Under the pieces are notes generated by a model, which saw only the letters and a program-made list of their open reading frames with translations, was not told the DNA's origin and searched no databases. DNA of 64,000 nucleotides from Octopus vulgaris (Eukaryota), in assembly GCA_951406725.2 (NCBI GenBank), contig OX597824.1, forward strand, positions 11,160,001 to 11,224,000, given 5' to 3'. Numbering within the stretch: position 1 is the stretch's first letter; the number at the start of each line of letters is the position of its first letter. Positions 2,553-63,317 of the stretch are shown in pieces. Both the position numbers and the translations under genes were made by a program.

Positions 2553-2696
2553 TTAACCAAGAACATATCTCGGCTCTAGATCTTGTGGATACACAGAGAA
2601 GATTCCTACCGCAGGGGGGTATGCATAAGGACACATCTTTCCTGCTTTAAAGTATTTCCAAAGCATTATGAAACATCGCTTTATCTTCCGTAGGAT
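2553..2696 (-). CDS. Alternative terminal coding exon B: ILRKIKRCFIMLWKYFKAGKMCPYAYPPAVGIFSVYPQDLEPRYVLG* (243-aa isoform if spliced directly to exon 1)
   Basis: Acceptor tattttgtattacag|ATC. Open in phase 0 to TAA at 2555-2553. Colinear similarity to exon A. Followed by about 2 kb of repeat-poor sequence. Confidence 0.75.
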   Translation of the reverse strand: MLRKIKRCFIMLWKYFKAGKMCPYAYPPAVGIFSVYPQDLEPRYVLG

Positions 2697-2862
2697 CTGT
2701 AATACAAAATATTGAAATATAAGCAAGCTGTTATCAAAGATATTGGATATTGTTACTAAAAAAAAAAAAAAATGTTCTTTTACATAAATTTAGCAAACAT
2801 TGAATGATGATTGTTTTAGAATAAGAAACATGTCTGGTGTCTTAGCTACCTGTTCAATTCTT

Positions 2863-3276
2863 GGATCTTTTCGGTTTGAACGGCAGTTTTTTCTAGCGGT
2901 GTCATATGAAAATGTCACCCATAATTATGACCCTAGTATTGATCTATTGCATTTCAATCTGTTTTAGGGTTAGGGTTAGTTAGGGTATCTTTCTTTCTTC
3001 ACAAATGAAAATAAACCCAATTTGTTTCTTAAACGAGGGACATATTCATACACGGCACAATGTTTTTTACCTAATGGACGTCAGTGATTGGTTGAAATTG
3101 CAGAAATTGAAGAAAAAAAACAACAAATATCTTACAAACTATAGAATTTTCTCAATAAAGCCAAGAGAAAAAGATGTTTTATAAACACATTCTACCAGTG
3201 TATGAAGTTTAAAAATTTTTTGGTTATGTTAAAAATTAAATTATGTTAAAAATTGCCATTCAAACTGAAAAGATCC
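2863..3276. mobile_element. Non-autonomous DNA transposon (Merlin-like), 414 bp
   Basis: TIRs GGATCTTTTCGGTTTGAACGGCA / TGCCATTCAAACTGAAAAGATCC. Perfect 8-bp TSD CAATTCTT (2855-2862, 3277-3284). GG-starting TIRs with an 8-bp TSD fit Merlin. Internal TTAGGG repeats at about 2964-2985. Confidence 0.8.
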
Positions 3277-3479
3277 CAATTCTTATATTAATGATTTCTT
3301 GATAGAACTATATCTAGCTTCATCATTATGGTTTCACCCAAGTTATATATGTCAGCTGTTTTATAGCTTTACAACAAATGAAACTCACAAAGAAAGTTTT
3401 GTGGAAACAGGCAAACTAGTAACCTATTGAAACCCAGATCAAGAAGAGGCTAGGGCACACCCTATGGGAACCAGTTTCC

Positions 3480-4128
3480 AATAGAACAAGGAAAGTTCAC
3501 CAATGGACAAAACTCCCAAGGAAGACACAAACATAGACCAAAACCAACATGGAAAAGATCCACCGAAACTGAAGCATTGGCAGGCAGTTGCACCAGGGGA
3601 CAATTGCAATCTCTTGTTTCTTATTTCTTTACTACCCAGAAGGGGCTACACACAGAGGGGACAAACAAGGACAGACAAAGGGATTAAGTGTATTACATTG
3701 ACCCCAGTGCATAACTGGTACTTATTTAATCGACTCCGAAAGGATGAAAGGCAAAGTCGACCTCGGTGGAATTTGAACTCAGAACGTAGCGGCAGACGAA
3801 ATACCGCTAAGCATTTTGCCAGGCGTACTAATGCTTCTGCCAGCTCGCAATCTCTTGTTTCTTTATTGCCCACAAGGGGCTAAACATAGAGGGGACAAAC
3901 AAGGACAGACAAAGGGATTAAGTCGATTACATCGACCCCAGTGCATAACTAGTACTTATTTAATCAACCCCGAAAGGATGAAAGGCAAAGTCGACCTCGG
4001 TGGAATTTGAACTCAGAACGTAGCGGCAGACGAAACACCACTAAGCATTTCACCCGGCGTACTAATGCTTCTGCCAGTTAGCAATCTCTTGTTGGTGCCC
4101 TGTGCTCCACATGGAGTTATAGGAACTA
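3480..4128 (+). pseudogene. RTE-clade LINE 3' remnant split by two SINE B copies
   Basis: Translates HRPKPTWKRSTETE before, and QSLVGALCSTWSYRN* after, the SINE insertion. Both match typical RTE ORF C-terminal motifs. Confidence 0.6.
3619..4080 (-). mobile_element. Two tandem SINE family B copies
   Basis: Each has GTTCTGAGTTCAAATTCC and GCCTTTCATCCTTTCGG.GT.GAT. GCAATCTCTTGTT occurs at 3606, 3847 and 4081. Confidence 0.9.
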
Positions 4129-4170
4129 GATTTGTATGAAAACAGTCAAATTTGTACATAATCACATACT

Positions 4171-4548
4171 TTCTCTTTTTACTATTTTACTTGTTTCAGT
4201 CATTTGACTGTGGCCATGCTGGAACACCGCCTTTAGTCGAGCAAGTCGACCCCAGGACTTATTCTTTGGAAACCTAGTACTTATTTCATTGGCCTCTTTT
4301 GCTGAACCGCTAAGTTACGGGGACGTAAACACACCACCATTGGTTGTCAAGGGATGTTGGGGAGGGACAAACACAGACACACAAACATACATTCTTATAT
4401 ATACATATATACGATGGGCTTCTTCTCAGTTTCCGTCAACCAAATCCACTCACAAGGCTTTGGTCGGCCCGAGGCTATAGTAGAAGACATTAGCCCAAGG
4501 TGCCACACAGTGGGACTGAACCCGAAACCATGTGGTTCGTAAGCAAGC
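4171..4548 (-). mobile_element. SINE family A
   Basis: Near full-length match to the family A copies at 24884 and 52819. Confidence 0.9.
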
Positions 4549-4919
4549 AGATTTGTACAAAAACACCATGCCAGGTTTGTACCAAAGCACCAATCAAGGT
4601 TTATACTGAAGTACAGAACCAGATTTGTTGTCATTGTTTTAGCCACATATTTTTACTATACGTTTTTATGCCTTTTACTGAATCTACTAAAATCACACAT
4701 TTTTCTTTTTCTCTAAATTATTTGCTTTTCTTATCTTGATTACAATATCAAGATATCTTCCTGAAATAGCATGATACCCAAAAAACAGAACTAGCTCAAA
4801 GAATTCTCTCTCTAAATGTCACGATTTCAATAGATTTTCTCATGTTTGGCTTTAAATGTTTGACTTTAAATGCCAAAAATTTACTAATAAAATAATCGTT
4901 ATCATCAATGACTCATGAA

Positions 4920-5175
4920 AGCATATGACCTTGTAGTTAGTGTGTTACACTCGTGATCTTGCAATTGTGGTTTTGATTCCTGTACTGGGAGCCGGATTGT
5001 ATTCTTGAGCAAAACACTTCATATCATATTGCTCCAGTTCAGGAGCAATATGATATGACAGCCTGGCATTCTGTTCAGGGTAACAGACTGGAATCCTGTT
5101 CAGGGAGAATATTGTGATCTCAGTCACTGATATTGCCATGAAAGTGGATGACTAGCCCTATGAATCCTAGGACTC
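4920..5175 (+). mobile_element. Degenerate tRNA-derived SINE (family D / V-domain-like)
   Basis: Similar to 36694-36945: GATTCCTG..., TTCTTGAGCAAAACACTTCAT, GACTGGAATCCTGTTCAGGG. Confidence 0.6.
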
Positions 5176-5859
5176 ACGATGGTACTTACTTATCAGTGAC
5201 TCACAATTTGTCATCCTGGCATAAAACAAACATATCAGAAAGAAATTATGAAAAATACTCGAGATATGGTAATGAAGAACCTAGACAAGTCGTAACATGC
5301 TGTGACGCCTGACCAACCCAAGTCAGCTTGAAAAAAAACAAAAGGACACACACACACACACACAAAAATCAGACAAAAATATGAAGGTTAGGATTATATA
5401 TATTTTTTGTTTAATTCCATCTATACTCTGTGATTAATTCACTAACCAATCAATTGATGAATAACCTTGGATTTACAGTTCATATGGATTGCTTGGTAGA
5501 TTTGGCCAATTCAGATTCTTATATTCTCTACCTGACACTCTGTTACACAGGTGCATTTTTTTTTTTTTTTAATTTTCACAGTGAGTACTGAGTGCCATAT
5601 TCACCTGGATTTCTTCAATCACTCAAACCCACCTGTTCACCCACACAGCATTTGTAGATTTTCCTAAAATATTAGGTTAGTGAGTAAAACTATTGAAGAA
5701 AGAAATCAAAATTGGACCATGAAGACTTACCGGATCAATACCAATATGTGTGTGTGTGTGTGTGTGTGTGTATATCTTACACACACAAATGAAATGATAG
5801 ATATCAATAATACAAAAATTAATATATAACTTTTAAGCAAAAGATATCAAATAATCAAC

Positions 5860-5881
5860 AAATATATACATAAATGTATAT

Positions 5882-5912
<31 letters not shown>

Positions 5913-6203
5913 CATACACATATGTATATATACATACACACACACATATGTATATACATACACACACATATATATATATACACACACACACATATATATA
6001 TATACACACACACACATATATATATATATACATACACACACACATATATATATATACATACACACACACACATATATATATACATACACACACACATATA
6101 TATATATATACATATATGTATATATACATACATATATGTATATATATATATACATATATGTATATATACATACACACACATATATATATACATACACACA
6201 CAC

Positions 6204-6256
<53 letters not shown>

Positions 6257-6864
6257 CATATATGTATATATACATACATATATGTATACATACACACACA
6301 CACATATATATATATATATACATATATGTATATATACATACATATATGTATACATACACACACACACATATATATATATATACATATATGTATATATACA
6401 TACATATATGTATACATACACACACACACATATATGTATATATACATATATGTATATATACATACATATATGTATATACACACACACACATATATATATA
6501 TATATACATATATGTATATATACATACATATATGTATATATATATATACATATATGTATATATACATACACACACATATATATATACATACATATATATA
6601 CACACATACATATATATACACACATACATATATACACATATATATACACACATACATATATACACACATACATAAATATACACATACATATATACATACA
6701 TACATATATATACATACATACGTATATATACATACATATACATACATACATACATATACATACATACATACATATACATACATACATACATACATACATA
6801 CACACATACATACATACACACATACATATACATACATACATACATACATACATACATACATACA

Positions 6865-6896
<32 letters not shown>

Positions 6897-6910
6897 CATA
6901 TACATATATA
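5860..6910. repeat. About 1.05-kb compound (TA)n/(CA)n/(TACA)n microsatellite
   Basis: Almost pure alternating purine-pyrimidine sequence. It is the source of six spurious 179-352 aa ORFs. Confidence 0.97.
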
Positions 6911-8179
6911 AGTGATACTAGTCTTTAAGACTAGTAATCAAGCTGAAAAATGACAATGTAAAAATGATAAATATTAACATCAAAGAGGCAGAAAACAGTA
7001 TCAAGCTGACACATGATAATATCACATGCACCAAGCAATAATATCAGACAGGCAGCATACCAAGATCAAGCAAACAAATGATATCTGGCTAACTGGTAAA
7101 TTATAGTATCAAGCAGGTGATGATATCAAACATGCAAATAGTGATATTGAACAAAGCAATGATACAAAAAGCAAATATTGATAATAAGAAAAAAATATTA
7201 ATAGTAATAATAAAAATTAATGAAATTACACAAGTTTAAAGGATTTAGTACAGTTTTATTAGGGGATGTTAATTAAAGTCACATGATTAGGAGTTAAACC
7301 AGTACAGTCAGTGAAGTCAATCAAGCCATATGTCATTAGTGAAATTACTATTTTAATATGTTAGAGAACCTCATAGATATAATTAGTTAGGTTTCTAAGC
7401 ATGTTGTATTAATATAACCAGTTTAATTAATTAGATTAATAAGACCATTCTAGAGAGAACTTTAATGTTATCATTACTTTAGATGTTTGTTTATCAGTGA
7501 GAAGAATCAAGCTATAAGTCCCTAAATTTGAGACTAGTTATTAATTTGGTGAAATCACATTATTAACTTTCTCTGTGTTTCTATCTAATTTACAGTTTTA
7601 TCATTTTTTTTTCAGTTTCTTCATATCCATATCGCATCATGCCCTTTTCGTTACATTTTTACTTTGGTCTGATAGTCCTAACTCTTCATCTGCTTTTAAT
7701 ACCCACCATAAAAAGACAATGAGCGAGCCTCTATGTAGTTGTTCAACCTGCTAGAAATGGCAGTCAAATATCCTTTAAATTACATCCTAATGTTCTAAAT
7801 AAAAAAAGGACACACTATATAATGTAGCATCCTACATATTTATAAGAAAGTCTGAATAATCTTAACTGGTATATTTCTAATCATAAGTCTGCTCATTCAG
7901 AACTGACCATACCACCACCACTACCTCCAACACCACCAACTGGTCCTTGAGTGCCTTTAGCAGAGCTCTGTTATAGAGTCCTTAGACCAGATCCTTGGTT
8001 CCCTTCTTACATCAATTACATTAATCTCACCAGTTTAAGAGCAACAGCACAGAATGGTCATAGTTCCAGCCCAGCCCTTCTCCTTTGGCTAACATAAGTT
8101 AAAAAACAGAAATTTATAACAGCATTGAACTTAGGAACCAGTATTCTTATCTGTTCTTAAGCTACAATTGCAAAATAGA

Positions 8180-8407
8180 TTAACCCTTTCATTACTGTAT
8201 TTCTGTTGAGATGCTCTGTGTTTCTTTCAATTACTTGAAATATAACAAAGAATTTAGTAAACTAACTTAGTTATCATTCAGCTAGTGTTAGGAACATAGA
8301 TTGTGACTAAGGTTTGGTGGAAGATTTTAATTCCAAACTTATGAAAACAAGACATTTGTACTCAGAGCCAGAGTCGGTTTCAGCTGGGTTGGTAATGAAA
8401 GGGTTAA
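8180..8407. mobile_element. piggyBac-type MITE (family E)
   Basis: TTAA at both ends, TIR CCCTTTCATTAC / GTAATGAAAGGG. Second copy at 11935. Confidence 0.9.
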
Positions 8408-8504
8408 AGATTTGTCAGGAAGTTCTTCAGCAAAACTATATAGAGATTGGATTGCTGAGTCCATTTTAGGAATATGGTAAAGCATTACTCTTGTAGCAAA
8501 TATA

Positions 8505-9150
8505 ATCCTTTCTTATTTTGGTACAAGGCCAGCAATTTTGAGGGAAGGAGTCTAGTTGATTACATTGACCCTAGTACTTAACTGGTACTTATTTTATCAA
8601 CCCTGAAAGGATGAAAGGCAAAGGTGACCTAGACAGAATTTGAACCGAGAATGTAAGTACAGGTGAACTGCTACTAATCATTTTGTCTGATGAGCAAACA
8701 ATTCTATCCCCCACCTTAATAGCAGCAAATATTATTATTATTATTAAGGTGGTGAGCTGGCAGAATCGTTAGCATGCTGGGCGAAATGCTTACTGGTATT
8801 TCGTCTGCCGCTACGTTCTGAGTTCAAATTCCGCTGACGTCGACTTTGCCTTTCATCCTTTTGGGGTCGATTAAATAAGTACCAGTTACGCACTGGGGTC
8901 GATATAATCGACTTAATCCGTTTGTCTGTCCTTGTTTGTCCCCTCTGTGTTTAGCCCCTTGTAGGTAGTAAAGAAATAGATATTTCATCTACCGCTATGT
9001 TCCGAGTTCAAATTCCGCCAGGATTGACTTTGCCTATCATTCCTTTAAGGTTGATTAAACAAGTACCAGTTACGCACTGGGGATCGATGTAATCAACTTA
9101 ATCCTTTCCCCCAAATTTGAGGCCATGTGCTGCTTCCAGTAGAAAGGATT
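8505..9150. mobile_element. Older B-related SINE (minus, about 8505-8720) followed by a SINE B dimer (plus, about 8748-9150)
   Basis: Family B head and body motifs in opposite orientations, separated by (ATT)n. Confidence 0.85.
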
Positions 9151-9199
9151 ATTACTATTATTATTAATAATAATGGACATTGAAGATGACATGAGCATT

Positions 9200-9680
9200 C
9201 AGCTTTTGTGGAACAACTTGCATAAATGATTTGTTCGTAGGGACCAAATGTATGTGCTGTACATTAGCTGACTCCCTCCATCAAATTGACATTACCTGTA
9301 CAGGTGCACAAGTGTGGTACACGTCAGATGTCGAAATGATCGCAAAGTAACATGAAATGAAGTGTTTTACTCAAGAACACAGTGCACTGCTTGGTCCAGG
9401 AATTGAACCCATGGTCTAGCAATCACAAGTGCAACACCCTAACCACTAGGTCATGTGCTTTCACTTAATATTAATCATTTCTACTATAGGCACAAGACTT
9501 AAAATTTTGGGGTAAGGGGGCTAGTTGATTACATTGACCCCAGTTCATAACTAACACTTTATCAACCCCAAGAGCTTGAAAGGCAAAGTTGACCTCGGCA
9601 GAATTTGAACTCAGACTGTAATGACATGAAATGCTGCTTAGCATTTTGCCCAGCGTGCTAACAATTCTGCCAGCTTACTT
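9200..9680 (-). mobile_element. Degenerate tRNA-SINE (about 9200-9465) and B-related SINE (about 9475-9680)
   Basis: Reverse-strand tRNA-like head (GGTTCAATTCCTGGACC) and family B motifs. Confidence 0.65.
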
Positions 9681-9828
9681 GCTGGTTTCTACAAGAGTCC
9701 AGAGCAGGGAAAATCTAACAATTGACTTTCTCACTACCAGTCCTTACACATATTGAGTTCTAACACTTAGTTATTGGTACCATTGTAAGTAAGCAAAATC
9801 CTAAAATGTATATGTGTGTGTGTGTATA

Positions 9829-10010
9829 TCATGCTCGGAATGGTCAGTGGCAAGAGAGGAAGAGGCCGACCAAGAACCCGCTGGCTTGACATCATCAAGA
9901 ATGATACCGGAATGGACATAGCTAATCTGAAAGAAGTGGCCCAGGATAGAACTGACTGGAGGACACTGATCCAACGAGTGACCGAGAGTCGACTTCGACT
10001 GAGCGGCTAG
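9829..10010 (+). pseudogene. RTE (BovB-like) LINE 3' end
   Basis: IMLGMVSGKRGRGRPRTRWLD...AQDRTDWRTLIQRVTESRLRL is a classic RTE C-terminus. Confidence 0.85.
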
Positions 10011-10425
10011 AGAGAGAGAGCTTTTACATATCTAACAACACCTCATCTACTGTTTAACAATCTACGTCTGTAAGTTATTGATCTGTGTTTAGTAGATGTA
10101 AATGCATACTATATTAATACATTTTTAACTAATATCACAAAACACATATAGGTCGTTAATGAATGTATATTAGTATGTGATGGGTGTACTAATGTTAAAA
10201 TGTAAATTTGTAATGATATCAATTAATTTTAATTAACACAGAAGATTAATTAATACTACTGAATTTCAAATACAAAGGGGAAAACAATGACAAGCAACAT
10301 TCATTTGTCATCTTTGAATATTTTTAGACATGCATTCAAGATGCAAGACAGAAAATTTGCAGGGTGGTTGAATTAAGAGACAGGCAGCGGGTAATAGGAA
10401 GAGAATATAGAATTGAAACCTTTGT

Positions 10426-10536
10426 CTAGGGTCCTGTTAAATAGAGACAAGGAGCCGGAGGTGTAAAGCCAATTATGAAAGCTTCTTTTAGAATTTGCAT
10501 AGAAACACGAGCACCATGCCCAAGTTTCTTCTTAAT
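10426..10536 (-). CDS. Alternative terminal coding exon A: IKKKLGHGARVSMQILKEAFIIGFTPPAPCLYLTGP* (232-aa isoform if spliced directly to exon 1)
   Basis: Strong acceptor (ttctttgttttgttgaattttcag|ATT). Open in phase 0 to TAG at 10428-10426. Continues the basic RRKR run of exon 1, aligns to exon B, and is followed by repeat-poor sequence. Confidence 0.72.
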   Translation of the reverse strand: MKKKLGHGARVSMQILKEAFIIGFTPPAPCLYLTGP

Positions 10537-10643
10537 CTGAAAATTCAACAAAACAAAGAAAATATATGTAGATATAAGAGATGAGACAAATAAGAAATAT
10601 GAATAAAAATATATATGTGATGTGTGTTTATTGTTGTTGTTGC

Positions 10644-10685
<42 letters not shown>

Positions 10686-10994
10686 GGTGGTATAGTTTCT
10701 TTCCTTTTCACCTTTTGCACATTCATTGGACTGTGGTAAAGAATTGGTGTTAGATTATAAGGTGGAGAATCAATAGCTCAAATAAGACTCAGGTATCTGG
10801 GACAGTGCCATCTATACCTTCTTTAACCATTCTCCATTCGCTCATGGAAGTCATACAAATTTTAGAATCACTGATTATAGTTGAAACTGTAAATTTCTCC
10901 TCAACTTCATGGCTAAATAGTTAATCATTGGTAAATCAAGCAGTTATAAAGATTTGCTACAAAATCATCTTGAACAGCAAGGTGAATGAATGCG

Positions 10995-11470
10995 TCATCA
11001 TCATCATCATCATCATCATCATCGTTTAACGTCTGCTTTCCATGCTAGCATGGGTTGGACGATTTTAACCGAGGGCTGGCGAACCAGATGGCTGCACCAG
11101 GCTCCAATCTTGATTTGGCAGAGTTTCTACAGCTGGATGCCCTTCCTAATGCCAACCACTCCGAGAGTGTAGTGGGTGCTTTTTACGTGCCACCGGCATG
11201 GAGGCCAGTCAGGTGGTACTGGCAACGACCTCACTCGAATCTTTTTACACATGCCACCAGCACAGGTGCCAGTAAGGCGACGTTGGTAACGATCACGCTC
11301 AAATGGTGCCCTTTTACGTGCCACGGGTATGGAAGCCAGTTGGCTGCTCTGGCAATGATCACACTCGGATGGTGCTCTTGGTACCCTACTAGCACAGGCA
11401 CAAGTGCCAGTAAGGTGACGCTGGTAACGATCACGCTCGAATGGTGCCTTTTATGTGCCACTGGCACAGA
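10995..11470 (-). mobile_element. Family C retro-repeat (RTE-type 3' UTR or SINE) with (GAT)n tail and internal ~60-bp repeats
   Basis: Minus strand carries GTGGTTGGCATTAGGAAGGGCATCCAGCTGTAGAAAC and ends in (GAT)n. Many copies in the window. Confidence 0.88.
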
Positions 11471-11934
11471 AGTGTGTAATAATTCTACATTTTTGAGTTG
11501 GTACTATTTTCTTGCTCAACAGGTCATCACAAACATTACATGTGTGTGTGTGTGTGAAGAAAAATTTATCAATAGAAGGTTAACAGTAAATCAATGAACA
11601 TGGTCCCGCACTCTGGAACTTAAAAGAAAACGAAAGACCACATGGGCATGATAGGAGGAAATTTTGTTACTCCTATTTCAGTCTAGACAGTGGTGAAAAG
11701 AAAACAAAAAAAAGTTCAGACTACCACTGTATATTTATACAATAAACCATAATTTGAGTACATCACATGATTCTCAACTGAGAGGAGGGGTAGAATAACT
11801 TGAGTAATGCTTCTGTGGGTCACACATCACTATCTCAACCAGTGCTGACCTGGAGTTAAACAACCACTAACTACTGCCATCACCATTGCATTGAACGTCC
11901 ACTTTTCCATGCTCGCATGGATCAGATGAATTTG

Positions 11935-18865: not shown

Positions 18866-20394
18866 AAGCACACACACATGTATTTCTTGTGTACAGTTAG
18901 ATGTATGAATGCTAATGGTGAGTTTTGAGTTTCACTTAGAATACCATTATTCAGTTTATTTTTCATACTTTCTCTTTCTAAAGTCACACACACACACATG
19001 TGTACATACATGCTAGTATCAACAAGTGACAATGAGTGCTCAACACTGCATTGATGGATAAATATACTTTATTTGTGGATTAACAAGGCAACCGATGGTT
19101 TCAGATGGAAAAGGTCTCCACAATTTTTAAGCAATCCACTTGGAAATAGAATTCTTGATGTAGTTAAAATATTTGAGGAAAGTCCTTCTTAAATAAAAAA
19201 ATATTTATTATATAACAAAAAAAAATCCCAAAAACAAGGATATGAAGCTTTTGGAAGGGAATGGAAACATCCTTCCAAAATATTCATGTCATTCTGGTTT
19301 TCTTTGAAGACTTTTTTTCATATAATCAAATGTTTCTTGAAACACACATACACGAACATATATGTACTGTTGCTCCATGAAATCTTTTATTACAGTTTAT
19401 TATACTGTTAGTCAGTGTATCTAAATTAATACTGTAATGTTTACCTGATACAGAATATTTTTTTGGAAGAAGTAAATCTACAAATATTATCATTTGTTGA
19501 ATGTCTGTTATTTGGGAATAAGTTGGATGACATAAGGGGATATTACTTTGAAGAGGTTAATGGTTCAAAGAAGATAATAACAGCTTGTTGAAAGTTTATA
19601 TGAGTCAGGGCTGAAGAAAAAGACTAATAGCATAACTTATTAAAAAGATAAGTTTTCAGAAAAGAATGAAAAAATTTAATAAGAAAGTGAGAATTAGAAC
19701 AGTTGAAGTTAAAAATGCAAGTATGCCTGAAGAGCAAAAGGAAAGATGTGGTTTTGGTTACTTGAATCTTTGTTAAAAAGAAAGAAGATAAAAAAGAATT
19801 GAATAGAATAACCTCACAAGCAATGAATTCAATGAAATTGTTTAGTTATAACTTTGTCTGAATTCCCTCTTCAAACAATAATGGCAACAGAACTCTAAAC
19901 ATCTCATTGAAAGCTAAGCACTAAATCGCAAAATTGTCAGGCAACAAATTACAAAGAAAAAAAAAGAAAAAAACATGAAAAATTTAAAAAAAATACAGTT
20001 TTAGTAACGATTTGTAAGATGCTGTTAGTGAGACACTAATCATTAACAATGTAGTTCCATCTAAGCTGGATGTACAGCAATACCAATTTCCTTGCAGTGC
20101 AATGTATTAGGCAAACGCTTATGCATACAGAAAAGATATTTTTTGTCTTCTTTTACCTGTACTGGTGATGTTCAGAAACATTTCTCTGATGTCAGCTAAT
20201 AAAACACTAAAAATGACCAAATACAACAGAAGTTAAATTATTGACAAATATAGAAATAGTTGAATAGAGGAGGATATATATATTTTTTTTCATGTCTTCT
20301 CTATAGAAAAGTTTGTTAGAATATGTATATATATATATTACGTTTATATATTTGTTGTGCAAGATTTTTTATGTGAAATCGTGTGTTGAAACAG

Positions 20395-29918: not shown

Positions 29919-30219
29919 CAATTGTCGAAAAGAAATGATAGATGGAACTGAAAATGACTACAGCAAGCCACTAAACATTGGAGGAAGGAAACCCAGTTTG
30001 AAACTACTGGGTTGTGGCCCTAATATCACTCGGTGTCAGACCAATCCGCCTTGGGTGGCCCTACCAGGAACCGAAGTTCCCGACGGCATAGCTTTGACAC
30101 CATACAATAACGCCAGCATCCCCACCATACAATAACACCGCTTTTACATTAGTGTTAAAAATTCTTATTTGGTTCTTTTAAGCAATATGGAGCTATGACA
30201 AAGAACAAATCAAGTTTCG

Positions 30220-30490
30220 ATTAGGGAGCAAATATTTAAGAAAAAGTGGAAGTGGATTGGTAGCACAATTAGGACAGACACACCAAATGTAGTGAAAAGT
30301 GCTTTACAGTGGAATCCGGATGGATATAGAAAGAAAGGTAGGCCCAAGAACTCGTGGTGGAGATCAACACAAAAGGAACTAAAGAAAGGGGGACATTCAT
30401 GGCAGAGTATAAGTACAGAAGCGAAAAATTATGCGACGTGGAATTCAACAAGTGGCCTATACTCCGTGTTGGAGGAAATGAAAGAAATCA
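30220..30490 (+). pseudogene. RTE LINE 3' remnant
   Basis: KKWKWIG...ALQWNPDGYRKKGRPKNSWWRS. Confidence 0.8.
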
Positions 30491-31324
30491 CTAATCACAA
30501 TGACATTTGTTTATAACTGTTATGTGACATCAAGGCAAGGAGACATCAACTCATATACACACACACAATACACATACACACAATACACATACACATGACA
30601 GGCTTCTTTTCAGTTCCATTTACCAAATCAATTCAAAAGGTTTTTGTCAGCAAGACAACACTTGCCCATGGTGCCACATAGTGGAACTGAACCTGAAACC
30701 ATGTGGTTGGGGAAGCAAGTACCTTAACCACACAGCCACACCTGTAATAGTAAATCCTAAATATCCATTGTATTTTCCCTCTCCATTTCTTTTTGACAAT
30801 AGAGTTAAATTTGAGGAAGATTTTTTAATGTTTTTGCAAATATGTTTAGGGGTACCATAGGACCTTTCTCCATAATGATGATGGGGGTGATAAAAGTATG
30901 TCATATAAAAACTTAGTGTCACATACAGACGCAACAATGATTTCATTAGTGAAATATGATACAAAAAGAGATTGGACATGGTTGGAATTATCTCCTGTAA
31001 ACAACAGACTTATTCCACAACACAGGTTTGAATAACCTTGCTATTTAACAGTCCGTTCTTTGGTCGCTTATCGGACATTTCATTGAATTAATTTGTTGAA
31101 CATTCACAACACATGCAGAGAAAGAATATTTAATTTTATAGGGCAGTTAATTGATAGGGGGGATAATACTGTCCGATGTGACAGTATTTCTTTTGTGAAT
31201 GTTTTCTACACACACACATACACACACACACACACATACATACATACAGTACTAGAAGGCCTACTTATGTCATAAGCATAGTTCCACTTCCTTGTGACAG
31301 TGACAAAGCTATATTATATATATT

Positions 31325-33230: not shown

Positions 33231-33296
33231 AAACTGTGTATGTGTTTGTCGCCCTCCACTGCTTGATAACCAGAATTGGCTTGTTTACAGCCTCGC

Positions 33297-33745
33297 AATT
33301 TAAAAGTTCAGCATTTGCCATATTCTGAATGCCTTACTTCCCTGGGCATGGACACATTGAAACTCCGACGTCTGGCAGCTGACTTGGCAGACACCCATAA
33401 AATTATCAACCATCTTACAAACAATAACTCTGAGCACCTTTTCAAACTCCACCCGTCTAACACTCGTGGACATATTTACAAAGTCAGACAACAGCACAGC
33501 TCCCATGACTTTAGGAAACATTTTTTCACGCTGAGAGTTGCTGAAGAATGGAACAGACTGCCGGCATCAGTCGTTAGTTGTCGGAGCACTGCATCCTTCA
33601 AAACTTCCATGCTTTCTGAGATTCGCCAACACTACACCTGATTTTCTTCCCTCCATTGTTCGCTTTCCAGACTTTATACGCACTTTCTGACAAGTTGTAG
33701 TGCACCTGAGCACTGTATACAATAATTTCATTATTATTATTATTT
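33297..33745 (+). pseudogene. CR1-like LINE 3' end
   Basis: LKLRRLAADL...NTRGH..K...RKHFFTLRVAEEWNRLP...FK, followed by 3' UTR and (ATT)n. Confidence 0.9.
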
Positions 33746-38370: not shown

Positions 38371-39330
38371 CAGGGTGCGATGGGTAAATTGTCGCCATTT
38401 TAGACTGTTAATTTCAACGCCTGTGCATTGTTTGTTTTATGATTTTGTTGACTACACAGTATAGTGGGGTCAGTTGGGCACTGTCTGTGAGAAAACCAGC
38501 ACTATAATGCAATTCATTCAGCCAGAAATTTGGAAACATGCTGTACTGCTTGGCATTCATGCTGGAGGTTCCAGTATGAACAGCTGGTGAACACACAGAA
38601 CAACTTTTGGTTTGCCATGTCCCCAAAACATGTACTGAGAATGATAAAAATCAAACATCCAGTCAACATCATGGTGTTTGGAGCGATCGCTAGTGATGGC
38701 AATGTTATGCTTCCATTCATCTTCTCACATGGCTTCAGACTCAACATGGAGGCCTATATCAAGTGCCTGGAGGAGGTAATGCTGCCCTGGGTCAAGAGGG
38801 TGGCTGTTGGAAGACCCCCATGTCTGGCAACAGGACTCTGCACCATGCCACACAAGCAGAAGAACCCATGGCATTCAATTGACTGAGATCACAAACTCAC
38901 CTCCTGGATAGGATGCTAGTCCATTGCAGGGTTAATTTCCCAGATATTACTGGAACTCATTTACAGTTGAGTGGAAGGGAGCAACATAAAATGAAATGCT
39001 TTGTTCAAGAAACAATGCATTGCTTGGTCCAGGAATTGAAACCATGACCTTATTACTCCATGCACCTTCAGCTTTATTATTTCTAGCTGTTGTGATATTG
39101 TTTTATTGTGAAGAATGTCTATCGTTACCAGCATCACCGTACTGGCACCTTTGCCGGTGGCATGTGTAAAAGATTCGAGCGAGGTCGTTGCCAGTACCGC
39201 CTGACTGGCACATAAAAGCATCCACTACACTCTCGGAGTGGTTGGCATTAGGAAGGGCATCCAGCTGTAGAAACAATTTCTGTGACCACATCACTCCTAA
39301 CATCTGGCCACCTAACTCCCCAGACTGCTC
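38371..39330 (+). pseudogene. Decayed IS630-Tc1-mariner (maT/DD37D-like) transposon
   Basis: TA|CAGGGTGCGATGGGTAAATTG end. KHPVNIMVFGAIASDG...FIF..G.RLN..AYIKCLEEVMLPW, frameshifted VWQQDSAPCHT, and after an insertion NFCDHITPNIWPPNSPDC. Confidence 0.88.
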
Positions 39331-47774: not shown

Positions 47775-48012
47775 TGTGTGTGTGATGATGATGATATATA
47801 TCAGTGAAAGTGCTAAAAAGTCCCTGGCTTTAAGGGTATCATAAAAGGCCTGGTTGGGGGCCCAACGTTCCGAGTTCTTTTATGAAAGTTTAGAAAACTG
47901 AAGGACAGCTGCAATAAGGGTGTGAATCTGAGAGGGGAATATGTTGAATAAAATCATAATTAACTGATCTGCCTGTATTTTCTTTTACTGAGAACCAGGA
48001 ACTTTTCAACCC

Positions 48013-48483
48013 CTATCTTGCTCCGAACATTGACCTCCTGGAATCTGTCCAGAGACGTGCAACCAAACGCATACCCTCCATCAGACACCTACCATATTCT
48101 GAGCGCCTTGTTTCCCTGGGCATGGATTCACTGAAGCTCTGGCGTCTGGCGATGGACTTGGTAAACACCCACAAAGTTATCAACCACCTCACCAACAACA
48201 ACACTGAACACCTTTTTGATCTCCATGTGTCTAACACACGTGGACATGCCTACAAAGTCAGAAAACAACACAGCTCCCATGACTTTCGGAAACATTTTTT
48301 CACGCTCAGAGTTGCTGAAGCATGGAATAAACTGCCTGCGTCAGTTGTTGACTGCCATGACACTGCATCCTTTAAGGCCCTCATGCTTTCCGAAATCCGC
48401 CGAAACTACACCTGATTATATATACACTTTAGATGAATTGTAGTGCACCTGAGCACTGTACACATTTATTATTATTATTATTA
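48013..48483 (+). pseudogene. CR1-like LINE 3' end
   Basis: LLESVQRRATK...NTRGHAYK...FFTLRVAEAWNKLP, with (ATT)n tail. Confidence 0.9.
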
Positions 48484-52287: not shown

Positions 52288-52327
<40 letters not shown>

Positions 52328-52335
52328 ACACACAA
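51846..52335. repeat. TA/CA microsatellite block with an internal ~70-bp duplication
   Basis: ...ATGTAGGTATGTACATATATGTATGTATATATGCATATGTTTTTATATAT occurs twice. Confidence 0.85.
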
Positions 52336-54574: not shown

Positions 54575-55092
54575 TACCATAAATCCTCAAGTATAATCCG
54601 CATTTTTCCCCAAAAAATTTAAAGGTCAAAATCCCTAATGTGTATTATATACGAGGTTAAAAATGAAAATTATTTCCTAAGCAATATCCGAGTCTCTATT
54701 TGCTGTCCGGCAATGTTTATTCAGACGCATTTTGTGATGTCGGGCGCGAAAATACCTTAAGCTAAGTCTGAAAGCAATGAAGTCATAAAAGAATCATCCA
54801 TGACTTGCAATAAGCAACATTTATTAAACGTTATTACTGTTATTTCTTTTATTTTCTGCAAACAAAATGCACAAAAAAGCTACACGTTTGCATTATGTTA
54901 TATATACAATAATAATAAAGGACGTTACCGTATATAGTTTTACACACCAAGGATGTTATATAGACCTCCTTGACTCAAGTAAGAGAAGGGGTGCGTATTA
55001 TACACAAGGTTTAGGTTTTTCAGAGGTACAGCCCCCTAAAAATCCCCTGCGTATTATACTCAAGGGTGGACTATACTCGAGGATTTACAGTG
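54575..55092. mobile_element. pogo/Tigger-like MITE
   Basis: TIRs TACCATAAATCCTCAAGTATAATCC / GGACTATACTCGAGGATTTACAGT. Confidence 0.7.
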
Positions 55093-55144
55093 AGTGCTTA
55101 TGTCAATTGCATTCAATTAATAAATTGGAATCTCTCTCTGTGTA

Positions 55145-55414
55145 CAGTGGTCCTCAACCAATAGTAAATTGGTGATCCACAGCAGTATTTTAAGGGTCCA
55201 TTAAAACATTTCACTTCAGATGTATTTATTGTAAAAAAAACAGGCAGCTTTCTTTCTTTAATGTTTTACGTAGCATGTTTCCGATCACTGATTCAGAATT
55301 TTGAAAGAATTGTCTATGAAAGTAGTTCTTAAACATCAAATGGCTTTGGGGATCCACCAGAGTAAAATAGTAATTAAAGGGGGTCCATAGGTAAAAAATG
55401 GTTGAGACCCACTG
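55145..55414. mobile_element. hAT (Charlie-like) MITE
   Basis: CAGTGGTCCTCAACC / GGTTGAGACCCACTG. Confidence 0.7.
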
Positions 55415-55436
55415 ATCTAATATGTTTGTGTGTATA

Positions 55437-56262
55437 ATGTCTTTCTCTATATGTGTATGTGTGTGTGTAAGTATCATTATCAATGTTTAATGTCCGTTTT
55501 CCATGCTAGCATGGGTTGGATGGTTCGACCTGGGTCTGGGAAGCCAAGAGGCTGCACCAGGCCCCAATCTGATCTGGCAGTGTTTCTACAGCTGGATGCC
55601 CTTCCTAATGCCAACCACTCCTTGAGTGGAGTGGGTGTTTTTTATGTGCCACCGGCACAGGGGCCAGAGGAGGCTGGCAACGGCCACAATCGGTTGGTGC
55701 TTTTTACATGCCACCAGCATGGAAACCAGTCAAGGCGGCGCTGGCATTGGCCACGTTCGGATTGTGCTTTTTATGTGCCACCAGCATGGGTATCACAACT
55801 ACAATTTCCATTTGATTTTTATTTTGATGTTGATGTACTTGATTCATTAGGTCTCCTGAAGCACAGCAGGTTGCCCTACAATCCAAGGTAAGCACAGCAG
55901 GTCGTCTTTCAAAGTGCAGGAAACAGATCGGGACATGTTACAGTCTTATAATTACCTCATCAACAAAGTATACATGATAAATAGTGATGGGAAAGGTACC
56001 CTACAATTGCCAAAGTCATTAAAACAATATTAGTCAATGACGTACATTGTTTTATTTTTTTCTCACTGTCTTTCTCTATATCAGTGCGCGCGTGCGTGCA
56101 TAAGTATCATCATTATCATCATCATCTAACATCCGTTTTCCATGCTAGCATGGGTTGGACGGTTCGACCAGGGTCTGGGAAGCCGAGAGGCTGCACCAGG
56201 CCCCAATCTGATCTGGCAGTGTTTCTACAGCTGGATGCCCTTCCTAACGCCAACCACTCTGT
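55437..56262 (-). mobile_element. Family C copy (about 55475-55875) and a local duplicate of its tail plus flank (about 56067-56262)
   Basis: Both share the flank TGTCTTTCTCTATAT...TAAGTATCAT and the variant GGTTCGACC.GGGTCTGGGAAGCC. Confidence 0.8.
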
Positions 56263-56509
56263 GTAGTGGTTTGCTTCCAGCACCAAAAAGTACTGTTGTC
56301 AAAACAGCTGGGCCACATCATCAGCATCCAAATAGCTGCGCCCACTCATCTCATTCTGCACCCTGGTGCAACATAGATTTTTTGAAAATATAATTTAAGG
56401 CTTTGGAAAAGCTATATTCATGCTTGGGCATCTTGAATAACATGTTCCTCATAATTTTGTCATACACAACTATGGTAAGCAAGTAGTTTTCTATATTTTT
56501 CTATAATTA

Positions 56510-57005
56510 TTAAGCCTTTAGTTACCATATTTTTTTTAATTAGAATACAGTATTTCAATTAATTTTGAAAATAATGAAGAATTTAATAAAATTTTGTCAT
56601 GATGAAGTCAATGTTTGGAACTTAAATCAATATAAAATTCTGATGAAAAGTTTTAATTTAGATCATTTTATAAACGAGAAGTTTGTATCACAGAACTGGA
56701 AGCCAGGAGAATTTCAGATGAGTCGGCATCAAAAGGATTAACTTTCTTTGCTAAGTGCACCAGTAATTTTCTTTATTTAACCCTTTGGTGTTCAAATTTC
56801 TCTATTAAATGTAATACTTTTTCACTTAAATTGTTTTGAATTAATCATGCATTGTGTTTATAGCTTTGAGGTTTCAATGATATGATTGTTTATTTTTAGA
56901 ATGTTACTGTAGGTTAGGTGTGAAAGGCTAGATATGGCCAATTTGAATATAAAACATATAGAATATTTGAGCCAGATATGGCCGGTTTAAACACTAAAGG
57001 GTTAA
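56510..57005. mobile_element. Two adjacent piggyBac-type MITEs (degenerate E-like, about 56510-56741; family F, 56777-57005)
   Basis: TTAA-CCCTTT...AAAGGG-TTAA for F. The E-like copy has decayed TIRs. Confidence 0.75.
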
Positions 57006-57711
57006 TCTCCAGTCAATATGATTAAGATCCCACCCCATAGTAGGTATATAAGCCAACAACAAAGCCTCACCTAACCGACAAGAAAAACAGTCAGTTGCAC
57101 TTTAATAAAATGTATATTTGCTAACAATCATTATATTACACTATGTTTGAATAATAATAATAAAAAATTGGGATGGTTATTGCGGGAATACCTTTCCTAT
57201 AGATCTGCACTATATAATGACTTTTTATAAAATTCTCTAAAGAACAGAACTTTAAAAGTAATTTATCCAAAAATTCAGTAAATTCTCGTGACTATTTCAT
57301 TTAGATGTTAATCAACTCATGCATGGTTGGTTCCTGCAGTAATTTAATATAAGCTGTACATCTATGAATTTGCAAAATTAATGTTTCATTATTTTTCCCA
57401 GCACAGACAGACACACTCTAGCAGGTGCCTACATACCTGTAATTTGCCCCCGATGTTAAAAAAGGTTAACCCAACCCACTTCAGCTCTGTGTGATCATTC
57501 AACCTGCAGAGCTGGGAATAAACAAAAGTAACATTTATATCTCCCCCACTTAACCCTCCACAGTTTTTTAGTTCTGCACACAGTGTTTTGATCTTTATCA
57601 TTCAGGTATCAGGTGTGTTTGTGTGTGAGTGTGTGGGGGGTGAGAAGGACAGGACACAATGTAATACCATCGATAGGATATGAACTTCAGACATTTTCCG
57701 GCTCATTTACT

Positions 57712-58083
57712 CATTTACTTGTTTCAGTCATTTGACTGCGGCCATGCTGGAGCACCACCTTTAGTCGAGCAAATCGACCCCAGGACTTATTCTTTGTAAG
57801 CCTAGTACTTATTCTATTGGTCTCTTTTGCCGAAATTACGCTAAGTTACAGGAACGTAAGCACACCGCCATCAGTTGCCAAGCGATGTTAGGGGGACAAA
57901 CATACACATACATACATATATACGACGGGCGTCTTTCAGTTTCCGTCTACCAAATCCACTCACAAGGCTTTGGTTGGCCCGAGGCTATAGTAGAAGACAC
58001 TTGCCCAAGGTGCCACACAGTAGAACTGAACCCAGAACCATGTGGTTGGTAAGCAAGCTACTTACCACACAGCCACTCCTGCA
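57712..58083 (-). mobile_element. SINE family A
   Basis: Full length. Confidence 0.9.
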
Positions 58084-58678
58084 CTTGTTGAGTTAGTTTT
58101 CTGTATGTGATTGGGTTCCATAAAGGACCAAGTTGAGAGAATGCTGAACAACCGAGGGATGAGCGGTTCATTTCTGGCCACAGGCAGTATACAATTCATG
58201 ACCAGGACACTAGAGTCCCAATGGTTCAGTCAGAATGAAAGAATATGTTTAGCCTTCTTGCTGAGAGTTAGGGGATGTCTCAGACACAATCACTACTAGC
58301 CATTCTTTGTACCTTCACATTTTCTTCAAGATGAATAGGATTGGTGGGTCCCAAAATCTCTTCTCAATTTTACTGTCAGTGTTGACTCCCTTAGTATTTA
58401 CCTTTTTTCAGGTGCTCAAAGGTGGAAGAAAAGCAGTGGTGCAAGTACCACTACAAAATTTAGTGTTTCATTAGTACACAGAGCCAGATGTTTGTAAGAA
58501 AAGAGTGTAGTTAATTGATTCACCCTCAATACACAACTGGTACTTATTGTATCAACCCAGCAGTGATTAACGACAAAGCTGTTGCTATGTCAACTATAAA
58601 TAAACAAATCGATGATCAAAAGCATCACAAACATAACCTCTGTGTATGTGTGCATGTATGTATACATATACGTGCTCG

Positions 58679-58712
<34 letters not shown>

Positions 58713-58720
58713 TATTACAC

Positions 58721-59095
58721 TTTTACTCTTTTACTTGTTTCAGTCATTTGACTGTGGCCATGCTGGAGCACCGCCTTTAGTCGAGGAAATCGACCCCAGG
58801 ACTTATTCTTTTGTAAGCCCAGTACTTATTCTATCGGTCTCTTTTGCCAAACCGCTAAGTTACGGGGATGTAAACACACCAGCATCGGTTGTCAAGCGAT
58901 ATTGGGGGGGACAAACACAGACACACACATATATATACGACAGGCTTCTTTCAGTTTCCATCTACCAAATCCACTCACAAGGCTTTGGTTGGCCCGAGGC
59001 TATAGTAGAAGACACTTGCCCAAGGTGCCACGCAGTAGGACTGAACCCGGAACCATGTGGTTTGTAAGTAAGCTACTTACCAGACAGCCACTCCT
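58721..59095 (-). mobile_element. SINE family A
   Basis: Full length. Confidence 0.9.
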
Positions 59096-59525
59096 ATATT
59101 TCAGACAGTAAATCTTTCTTTCTTAAGACGGTAGGGAAAGATTTGAGAGAAATTTAGTTGCTGTTTGTAGCAGGTCAAATGAAGATATAAAGCAATAGTG
59201 AATAACTTTATTTCCATCCCTTTGGGCAAATTAGGAAGAGAGGAACCTGTTGATGGAGTGTGTGTGTACTGAGAAAAATAATAAAGTTTTAACATTATAA
59301 ATTTATAGCTATGCAACTTATATTAATTAGTAGAAATGCACAGCCTTGTTCATACCAAAAAAATACAATCACATGAATTTGCTATCTGTTGGATAAATTG
59401 CTATAAAAATATTAATTTTTTAGGAAATATCATAAAAGTCACACAGTGCATGGACCTTTTCCTTGAAAAGACACACCTGTATGCAAAATTTCATCTACCT
59501 GGGGGGAAAACCACAGCCTATATAT

Positions 59526-59731
59526 ACTCTTTTACTTGTTTCAGTCATTTGACTGTGGCCATGCTGGAGCACTGCCTTTAGTTGAGGAAATCGACCCCAG
59601 GACTTCTTATTTTTTGTAAGCCTAGTACTTATTCTATCGGTCTCTTTTGCTGAACTGCTAAGTTACGAGGACGTAAACACACCAGCATCGGTTGTCAAGT
59701 GATGTTGGGAAGGACAGACACACAAACGTAT

Positions 59732-59771
<40 letters not shown>

Positions 59772-59933
59772 GTGACAGGCTTCTTTCAGTTTCCGTCTAC
59801 CAAATCCACTCACAAAGCTTTGGTTGCCCGAGGCTATAGTGGAAGACACTTGCCCAAGGTGCCACGCTGTGGGACTGAACCTTGAACCATGTGGTTGGTA
59901 AGCAAGCTACTTACCACACAGCCACTCCTACAC

Positions 59934-59934
<1 letters not shown>
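59526..59934 (-). mobile_element. SINE family A
   Basis: Full length. Confidence 0.9.
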
Positions 59935-59972
<38 letters not shown>

Positions 59973-60357
59973 AATGTTTGCTTTTATGTTATTATCTTTA
60001 CTATAGGCACAAGGCCTGAAATTACAGGGGCGGGGGTGAGTCAATTACATCGACCTCAGTGCTCAACTGGTATTTATTTTATTGACCCCAAAATTGCCCT
60101 TCCTAATTGTCAACTGCTTTGCAGAGTGAACTGGGTGGTTTTTATGTGGCACCAGCACTGGTGAGGTCTGCTTTGGCATGGTTTTTATACAGCGGGGAGC
60201 CCTTATTAATGTCAGCCACTTTATATATACATACACACACGTGTAACCACTTAGTCCCCTCCCCTAATTATAGGCCTTATGCCTATAGTTGAAAGGATTA
60301 TATTATAAATATACATACTCTACTTAATGCATTGAGTACTCTCATACTTTCTCTCTC

Positions 60358-60753
60358 TCTCTTTTACTTGTTTCAGTCATTTGACTGCGGCCATGCAGGA
60401 GCACCGCCTTTAGTCGAGCAAATCGACCCCAGGATTTATTCTTTGTAAGCCTAGTACTTATTCTATCATCAGTCTCTTTTGCCGAACCGCTAGGTTACGG
60501 GGACGTAAACACACCAGCATCGGTTGTCAAGCAATGTTAGGGGGACAAACACAGACATACAAACATACACACACATACATATATATATATATACATATAT
60601 ACGACAAGCTTCTTTCAGTTTCCGTCTACCAAATCCACTCATAAGGCTTTGGTCGGCCCGAGGCTATAGCAGAAGACACTTGCCCAAGATGCCACGCAGT
60701 GGGACTGAACCCGGAACCATGTGGTTGGTAAGCAAGCTACTTACCACACAGCC
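60358..60753 (-). mobile_element. SINE family A
   Basis: Full length. Confidence 0.9.
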
Positions 60754-62122
60754 AATGTACCGTAAAATATATAGCAAAAATGACGACTGGCATATAACTT
60801 CAAGATTTATGCTGGTGAAATCCACTGCACAGTTGTTGCCTTTGCTGGTTTGTTCTTACATCTATGGAGCAGTAAAATACAATGTTAGCCTCACTTTAGG
60901 GCTCCTTAGTTTGAAGGGCCTTAAAATTTAAAAGGAATAGGTTTTGATTTCTGAAATCTTCTGGTGAAAAATTTATAGCTAGAGGACCTTAACCCTTTCG
61001 TTACCAACCCGAACCTGATATCGTTTAGGGCCTCAGCAAATTTAATTCTTGCACTGTATATATATATATATGTATGTAGGTAATTTATGAATATGAACAG
61101 GGTAGGTGGGGAATTAAAATTGTCGACAGTCGGATGTCACAGCTAAATGCGTTCATCTTGAATATTTTAACTTAAAAAAACTCGTAGTCTTCACAGAAAT
61201 TATTGCCTACTTACATGGCCCCTTCTCTTAGGATGATCGTGTAAATCCCAGTAGAGACTGGCTACAAAATGTCTATGACAACTGCCCGTCCTCTCCTGCC
61301 TGTAAGGAATAAGACCTCCACAGACACAAAAAAAAAAAGAAAGCAACTGTAGTCCGACAACCATAGATTACTCAAGGTCCCACAATAATCATTAGGCTTC
61401 GAATAGATGCAGCGAAAAGTGACAGAAGTGGAGATTGCCAAATATGAACTACAAACTTCACAGACATGACTGTTTAGAGTAAAATACAACTTTGGTTGTG
61501 ATGACGGAAGACAACATTGACTTTCACATTATATATACATATAACAATAAGGGTTTTTGCAACAAGTTGCGTGACCACACACACACACACATATAAGTAC
61601 CAGAGAGAGGAAGGTCTTCCTTCCGGGGAAAGAAATTTTGTACTTCACCGCTCACTCTAGTTTCAATACTAGACACATAACTGAGCAAGCAATGAAAACA
61701 GGATACAAGTGGAGTAAACAGGAATGAATTCATTCATAATAGTGATTTCGTATAATAATAATAGCACACGGTCACAAATAGACTATCCAGGCGTATCGAA
61801 TATTAAAAGGGAGCGTCATAGCGATTTACAAGGAAATAAAAATTATCTTTTCCCAAACGGATTTGGTAAATTTTTACAAGTACACCCTCACGCGGTTTGC
61901 AAAGAAAACTCCCTCTCGGTAAATAGATAGGTAGGTGTGTGCGATTAATTAGCTGTGAAATCACATAAAGGCCTCAATAGCCTAGAGTTTCTTGGAAAAG
62001 CACTTGTCAAACACCTCATGGAACCATGTGTGTGTGGGTGTTAGCTGACAAACTAATATCAAAGTAAGAATTAATATTTATACAGTTTATCATATGATTT
62101 CATTAGACTGCAGCCAGTAACG

Positions 62123-62159
<37 letters not shown>

Positions 62160-62166
<7 letters not shown>

Positions 62167-62290
62167 GAATTTACAAAAAAATAAAAGACGGGTGTGTAAA
62201 CAGTAAACAGATGTTTAACGCTCGGGAAGTGAGGGAATCTTTGTTTCGAGCCTACGCTCTTCGACAGAAAGGAACACAGAAATAAACACA
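62160..62290 (-). mobile_element. Penelope-like fragment with decayed hammerhead-like fold
   Basis: Minus strand TTTCTGTCGAAGAGCGTAGGCTCGAAAC, flanked by (TA)n/(TG)n. Confidence 0.55.
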
Positions 62291-62312
62291 TATATATACA
62301 TATATATATGTA

Positions 62313-62360
<48 letters not shown>

Positions 62361-62729
62361 CTAAAATCTTCGACATCGATTTTATTCTATCCAAGATATT
62401 AGTCATAATAAGCGCCAATTTGAGACAGAAAACGGATAAATAGCTGACTGACGGAATTCGAACCCAAGCAAGCAATAGGCATCTCACTGGGTCCGTTATT
62501 TGTTGCTTTTTATCTCTGGTTGGTGCTTATAGCATATAAAACACACACACACATACATACATACATACATACATACGCGCGCGCGAGATGGTGTGTGTAT
62601 AGGAATTCATAGGTATAAATATCTATTAAAAAAATGCAGGGCTATTTGATTAAATAACTTCAGGAAGAAAAGTAAAACGCCAGCAATAATAATTGATAAT
62701 GAATGTATAAAGAAATAAAAGAAAAATAC

Positions 62730-63317
62730 CCTTTTTCGACGCGACTTCAATTTCTTATCGATTTTGGCGGAAGACGGAGTAATTTCTTCGATTGGGACTT
62801 CGACATCTGGAGATGTCTGGCATTGCTTGATATGGTCGGAGCTTCCTTTATGTTCGGAAGTTGCTGTACATTCTAAGTTTACACTTTGGTAACCGACTTG
62901 ACCTAGCACTTCGATTTTATCTGCTTCTTCTTGAACATGATGGTAAGACGGTCTCTTTGCAGAGAGTGCATTTTTAATATCCGTAATTGTAGAATTCTTT
63001 GTGGGGGTGATGGAAGATGGATATGCTATCGGAAAGTCCGAACGATGAAAGCCAGCATCAGGTTCATCAAACCCTTGTCTCATGGACATCGCGGAAACAG
63101 AGGAATTAGGTGTTTTGTTTTCAATCCTGTTAACATTTGGGGGTTCGTTGGAGATAGAGGTATCGGTAACACTAGCACAGTAAACGCCTGTTGTTGACAT
63201 CTCTACTTCACTTTCATCACAGATTTCTTTCAGTTTCGAATACGGTGCGCGATTCCAAACAGGCCTAATGTATCTTTTGTGGAAACCTACAGCCGTATCC
63301 CAGATTTTATGCCACAT
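62730..63317 (-). CDS. First coding exon (196 codons) of an uncharacterised protein: MWHKIWDTAVGFHKRYIRPVWNRAPYSKL..., S/T/E-rich probably disordered middle, ending ...KKLKSRRKR
   Basis: Longest non-repetitive ORF in the window, with higher GC/CpG than its surroundings. After AAAAGG the sequence reads GTATTT (GT at 62729-62728, phase 0) and the reading frame turns into T-rich intron-like sequence. No domain recognised. Confidence 0.85.

Follow-up and report, generated by a model that had tools for sequence, protein, structure and literature searches.

A three-way splice switch at the C-terminus of an uncharacterised octopus protein, predicted to exchange membrane anchors

How many different ends can splicing give to one small, probably disordered protein, and what would exchanging them do? 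The question is raised by an uncharacterised gene of Octopus vulgaris in a 64,000-nucleotide (nt) stretch of contig OX597824.1, hereafter the window, in which all parts of the gene lie on the minus strand. A first-pass annotation, made from the letters alone, had described a first exon ending in a polybasic run and two mutually exclusive terminal exons, here called A and B, located 52.2 kb and 60.0 kb downstream, and had proposed the junctions 62730^10536 and 62730^2696. Both junctions are present in RNA-derived contigs and the matching proteins are annotated. Exons A and B are thus used as foreseen; the count was too low, a third alternative, exon C at 20206, having been missed.

The three-way C-terminal splice switch is real. 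We compared RNA-derived contigs from 4 of 24 listed runs with positions 62640-64000 (the first coding exon only); the run types are guesses, and the evidence for transcription is the spliced junctions themselves. The match breaks off at 62730 in all four runs and resumes in another exon: exon B in run X4 (62730^2696), exon A in runs X18 and X20 (62730^10536) and exon C in run X8, where the continuation, starting at 20206, maps once in the window. Exons A, B and C are all in phase 0, each has its own stop, and their junctions come from separate runs. One splice form was assembled per run, which hints at sample-specific exon choice, with the reservation that this count comes from four runs whose tissues are not given and from contigs, which drop rare variants.

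Public annotation tells the same story. The uncharacterised locus LOC115217382 of O. sinensis has isoforms X1 (243 amino acids, ending in B), X2 (232, ending in A) and X3 (200, ending in C); isoforms X1-X3 of LOC106870965 match them in O. bimaculoides, and the A and C isoforms are also on file for O. vulgaris (GenBank/RefSeq). All three gene models are therefore already public, and it is the functional reading of them that appears to be new: no paper was retrieved for two gene identifiers and two protein accessions in open-access main texts without supplements, nor any on-topic paper joining alternative splicing, CAAX and amphipathic-helix isoforms in the open-access library, again without supplements.

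Table 1. Parts of the gene in the window (aa, amino acids; ORF, open reading frame)
Feature	Positions	Strand	Remarks
First coding exon	62730..63317	(-)	ORF of 196 aa, the constant body; phase 0
5' leader	63318..64000	(-)	covered by RNA-derived contigs; 6 upstream ATGs
Exon C	20157..20206	(-)	CFIS then stop at 20206-20192; terminal CaaX
Exon A, coding part	10426..10536	(-)	36 aa and stop; ATTAAA at 10233
Exon B, coding part	2553..2696	(-)	47 aa and stop; AATAAA at 2281 and 2259

The splice signals agree with these limits (Table 1). The first coding exon ends in phase 0 at a weak donor, AGG/GTATTT; pyrimidine tracts ending in CAG stand just upstream of exons A and B, and a pyrimidine tract with TAG precedes exon C. 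The limits and phase of the first coding exon, and the acceptors and stops of A and B, were correct as first annotated; for exon B the start and stop hold, and the quoted translation, at 37 residues, fell short of the actual 47. The 683-nt leader [63318..64000] reaches the window edge at 64000, where an acceptor-like pyrimidine tract ends in CAG, so an untranslated exon may lie further upstream, which would make 'exon 1' the first of the coding exons and not the first exon; two contigs extend 59 and 158 nt beyond the edge.

What do the three ends look like? In tails A and B alike, a basic amphipathic helix is predicted, with an uncharged hydrophobic stretch behind it. Over the first 18 residues the hydrophobic moment (muH) is 0.44 with charge +4 in tail A (shuffle p=0.04) and 0.64 (range 0.64-0.70) with charge +6 in tail B (p=0.008); tail D, carried by distant relatives, reaches 0.46 (p=0.05). 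Taken together, tails A, B and D span muH 0.39-0.64, charges of +4 to +6 and shuffle p values of 0.008-0.08, and the segments after their helices are hydrophobic with net charge 0, proline-rich in A. Given basic amphipathic helices in both A and B, the isoform-specific membrane targeting first suggested is a reasonable inference; the lipidation suggested with it finds its clearest signal in the CaaX box of exon C, not in the cysteines of A and B.

Exon C adds CFIS and a stop right after the polybasic run with which the constant exon ends (net +7 in its last 12 residues, the 12 upstream of the exon C cysteine). Three of four methods and 13 of 13 models call CFIS prenylated, and all of them do so for CIIS, its counterpart in O. 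bimaculoides (rows of the PMC9231725 supplement). CIIS is also given as the farnesylated end of yeast Ras2 in the excerpted text of PMC9927470. Among 826 acceptor-like AGs in 184 kb, one yields a CaaX motif and then a stop, and it is exon C. Isoform C is thus predicted to carry a K-Ras4B-like anchor, polybasic and farnesylated.

Starting from the three junctions, the three protein ends, the motifs and their conservation, all of them directly observed, we propose, at about an even chance of being right, that a disordered body with a polybasic run is spliced to one of three stop-bearing exons, each completing a different membrane anchor. The constant polybasic run would bind acidic lipids on the inner face of the plasma membrane. 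With A or B added it would grow into a phosphoinositide-binding helix like that of C1orf115/FACI, and with C added it would become a polybasic-farnesyl anchor of the K-Ras4B type. A further step has less support: conserved YxxL/YxxV and dileucine-like motifs in the body may recruit the clathrin adaptors AP2/AP1, in which case the protein would act as a small endocytic or sorting adaptor, its compartment and membrane residence set by the last coding exon.

One part of this scheme that is open to challenge is exon C. It could be a recent, incidental truncating or poison exon with a coincidental CaaX, leaving A and B as the only functional tails. Such a role would suit an exon seen only in Octopus and adding only 4 residues, and it would suit the arrangement downstream of its stop. 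A donor-like CAG/GTAAAA, ranked second by a rough scoring matrix among the 45 GT sites of a 900-nt stretch, lies 50 nt from the acceptor and 35 nt after the stop, and the X8 contig ends 52 nt past the junction into exon C. Exons A and B both start with AT, so branching from exon C into A and B would end the contig at exactly 52. Exon C may then be a stop-bearing cassette placed upstream of A or B, masking either, a suggestion that comes from one contig end. If only one more exon follows, a stop 35 nt ahead of the last junction is close enough, by the usual rule, to escape nonsense-mediated decay. The terminal reading is allowed as well, with AATAAA at 19401 and 19391, 0.8 kb downstream of exon C. 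Against an incidental exon, assembly of run X8 gave the C form alone, and C is annotated in the entries of three Octopus species; its sole interspecies change, F to I, keeps the motif prenylatable; and Cxxx followed by a stop occurs after only 57 of 21,240 AGs. We hold the incidental exon to be unlikely.

For exon A rather more can be said. A donor-like site lies 6 nt after its stop, at 10420, where the X18 contig ends; a GT beside a contig end is expected by chance in about 6% of cases (55 GT in 900 nt). This left the prospect that A serves in every mRNA as a cassette leading on to B, which a broken processed fragment elsewhere in the genome (G000:C2:33197836-33198073; L024:1479-1716) rules out. 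The fragment is about 90% identical to the A-isoform mRNA and consists of 61 nt of the first coding exon fused to exon A at the 62730^10536 junction; it is frameshifted, has a 13-nt deletion and is without a poly(A) tail. It runs uninterrupted through 10420 to 10345, and exon A was therefore terminal in the mRNA from which it came. The fragment also implies that isoform A was once expressed in the germ line or the early embryo; neither exon B nor exon C turned up as a processed copy. In exon B, an internal donor-like site, GCG/GTAGGA, occurs at 2610, after codon 29.

The constant body offers the motifs on which the adaptor part of the proposal would depend. The first coding exon contains YSKL (Y26), DAGF (D87), YHHV (Y125) and a dileucine-like DKIEVL (D133). 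Y26-x-K-L and a second YxxPhi motif are kept in six of six proteins scanned, and the dileucine-like DxxxVL/II/VI in five of six, with loss in Argonauta. The rest of the body is predicted to be disordered: in a structure model built from 9 sequences, 189 of 232 residues have a predicted local distance difference test (pLDDT) value under 50, and the only helices span residues 2-16 and 203-217. Together with the junctions and the annotated isoforms, this low-confidence model bears out the picture, already drawn in the first-pass annotation, of a constant and probably disordered body with switchable tails. Nothing came near the Pfam cut-off for the body, the full proteins (14) or the tails (6), so the earlier failure to recognise a family also holds for Pfam, even though the layout resembles that of C1orf115/FACI.

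The first of these helices invites another reading. The N-terminal 18 residues are amphipathic in four of four proteins tested (muH 0.57-0.62, p about 0.004); the helix (about residues 2-18; 63264-63317, minus strand) has two tryptophans, and a distant relative has the same residue at 24 of the first 31 positions. Accounts of C1orf115 and FACI give these proteins a disordered N-terminus, without a helix of this kind, and analogy with them would leave the role of the octopus helix unexplained. The N-terminal helix might be the main organelle-membrane signal, the C-terminal tails serving as a second, switchable anchor, and the protein would then be a flexible tether between two membranes. The endocytic-type motifs favour the plasma membrane or endosomes over an organelle tether, and binding by both ends is a prediction, so that we rate the tether as quite improbable.

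A nuclear role should also be considered. The lysine- and arginine-rich end of the first coding exon resembles a nuclear localisation signal and could act as a nuclear or nucleolar import signal, with the tails switching the protein between nucleus and membrane, or binding proteins such as calmodulin and not lipid. Calmodulin is a frequent partner of basic amphipathic helices. According to the excerpted text of PMC11757849, the helix of C1orf115 is also responsible for localisation to nucleoli and speckles. A membrane anchor is the better fit to the CaaX alternative and to the hydrophobic stretches behind the helices, and a nuclear or protein-binding role strikes us as improbable to much the same degree as the tether.

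Returning to the exchange of membrane anchors, several observations count against it or narrow what can be built on it. The CaaX form is present in 0 of 13 members of three clusters of distant relatives and is seen only in the genus Octopus. Predictors accept 17-42% of 8000 Cxxx motifs, and the yeast farnesyltransferase accepts a broad Cxxx range (10.1101/2023.02.06.527295; both from partial texts), so the quality of a CaaX alone says little. Tail A is modestly amphipathic (p=0.03-0.08 across species). Argonauta lacks the dileucine-like motif, which is in any case non-canonical, and YxxPhi/YxxL motifs are short and common by chance. The structure model is of low confidence (mean pLDDT 44), and farnesylation, localisation and AP2 binding are all predictions. 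As for the link to C1orf115, the RDD1/C1orf115 family headed the ESM Atlas matches of two queries, the Octopus A isoform (0.84, 178 shared features) and a D isoform represented by its C-terminal half (0.82, 176 shared features); scores below 0.9, with the family common to only five of ten named matches in each search, are read by the tool as probably wrong, and the matches are thus leads only.

Relatives were found only in Octopus, in Argonauta and in three clusters of Logan/ENA proteins, 35-40% identical, which presumably come from more distant cephalopods. Tail A, the most conserved of the tails, is identical at 36 of 36 positions in O. bimaculoides and at 30 of 36 in Argonauta and two distant proteins. 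In the same relatives outside Octopus, body identity ranges from 82/193 to 104/174 (about 42-60%); tail A, far above the body, is therefore under strong constraint. In O. bimaculoides, tail B is identical at 40/47 positions and the body at 185/196 (Fisher p=0.055). The distant proteins carry the different 47-residue tail D, of the same length as B and similar to it in fixed register (p=0.0015-0.007), so that D may be a diverged orthologue of B; it was not found in the octopus genome (one query, no candidate) nor in the window and its 120-kb flank. A separate observation concerns forms that resemble read-through into the intron, at 62729-62607 (minus strand) of the window and in proteins P0006, P0012, P0013, P0015 and P0017. 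The intron-read tail is 17/23 identical between two distant clusters and may be a further functional end.

Did exons A and B arise from one another? The first-pass annotation derived them from an old exon duplication on the strength of an almost gapless alignment. The shared residues it listed are present, in a total of only 7/36 identities. Free local alignment gives nothing above chance, with p=0.42 for DNA, p=0.45 for protein and an hhalign probability of 0.5%. Once the two are aligned in register from the acceptor on, the signal is marginal (p=0.07 for the single pair and p=0.02-0.04 with small profiles), and of 15 offsets the highest score falls at 0. An old duplication is plausible but weakly supported; a common helical register reached by convergence behind the shared stub would leave much the same trace.

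Some features of the locus lie outside these questions. In the leader, all four runs have A instead of T at 63634 (plus strand), and an extra C follows 63872 in all three covering runs; the pattern, unlike that of A-to-I editing, suggests an allele or an assembly error. Intronic open reading frame fragments at 30199-30516, 33270-33641, 38491-38886 and 47960-48415 resemble the ends of LINE (long interspersed nuclear element) reverse transcriptases and a DDE transposase remnant. A 1.05-kb AT/AC microsatellite at 5862-6910, between exons A and B, accounts for several spurious long open reading frames.

Does the resemblance to C1orf115 and FACI reflect common descent? Homology is not supported by the sequence tests. 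For RDD1 (PF15828), none of the 14 proteins or 6 tails matched above the cut-off, and when the genome was searched with the same family, 53 candidates yielded 21 listed matches, all of them away from these exons. The eight of these matches that were translated look like low-complexity runs and one transposon remnant, and were set aside as chance. An off-frame reading of one locus (L003, G000:C17:35879116-35879205), which is presumably a mariner transposase remnant, reaches 24 bits on PF15828; chance matches to this model must be expected, and a score of about 24 bits is within reach of a random basic helix. FACI had no sequence or profile match and no vertebrate-named match in Pfam and profile searches. 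Searches for relatives bridging to vertebrates returned only the protein's own family (6 matches from 2798 candidates and 4 from 3649), in a setting where short-motif proteins can escape detection; among 1.84 billion representatives there were three family matches and one repetitive chance match, the tandem-repeat protein P0023, with no vertebrate bridge. The genes that neighbour human C1orf115/FACI, a MOSC-domain gene and pyruvate carboxylase, are on other contigs in the octopus, which is uninformative at such evolutionary distance.

The comparison is thus one of design. In the excerpted texts, C1orf115 is a disordered protein with YxxL and an acidic dileucine-like motif and with a charged amphipathic helix and hydrophobic segment that bind phosphoinositides (PMC11757849), and FACI is likewise disordered, with YxxL, an acidic dileucine-like motif, a phosphoinositide-binding amphipathic helix and a hydrophobic segment (PMC8938335). 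The Octopus protein shares with C1orf115/RDD1 (PF15828) the disordered part with YxxL and perhaps a dileucine-like motif, then the charged helix and the uncharged hydrophobic segment, and with FACI/C11orf86 the order YxxL, DxxxLI-like motif, amphipathic helix and hydrophobic disordered tail (PMC8938335). It differs from both in size, 200-299 amino acids against about 140 for C1orf115 and about 115 for FACI. Compared with C1orf115 it also has a further amphipathic helix, at the N-terminus, and it can end in three ways, one being a CaaX. Within the same excerpts, C1orf115 is reported from fishes onward only (PMC11757849), the earliest FACI orthologue is that of zebrafish and no alternative tails are mentioned for FACI (PMC8938335). 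The Octopus protein likely works like C1orf115/FACI, without membership being assigned. That it is an invertebrate member of this endocytic-adaptor group, in which cephalopods made the single lipid-binding helix into a three-way, tissue-controlled switch involving two phosphoinositide-binding helices and a farnesyl anchor, the constant exon supplying half of each anchor, is doubtful; if it were so, a small group tied to mammalian drug efflux and lipid uptake would extend to molluscs.

The switch itself has closer parallels. Alternative last exons that exchange membrane anchors are known from KRAS and CDC42: in the excerpted text of PMC9663995, the alternative last coding exons of KRAS4A/KRAS4B exchange the membrane-targeting C-terminus, and the KRAS4B anchor consists of a lysine run and a farnesylated CaaX; CDC42 splice variants show the same kind of C-terminal exchange. 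Unlike KRAS, the Octopus protein is without a GTPase or other folded domain, and the polybasic half of its anchor sits in the constant exon. Both KRAS forms end in CaaX, whereas the Octopus switch would set a prenyl anchor against non-prenyl helical ones. If true, an exchange of helical and prenyl anchors on one polybasic stub would offer a compact natural test of the way in which localisation depends on the chemistry of the anchor.

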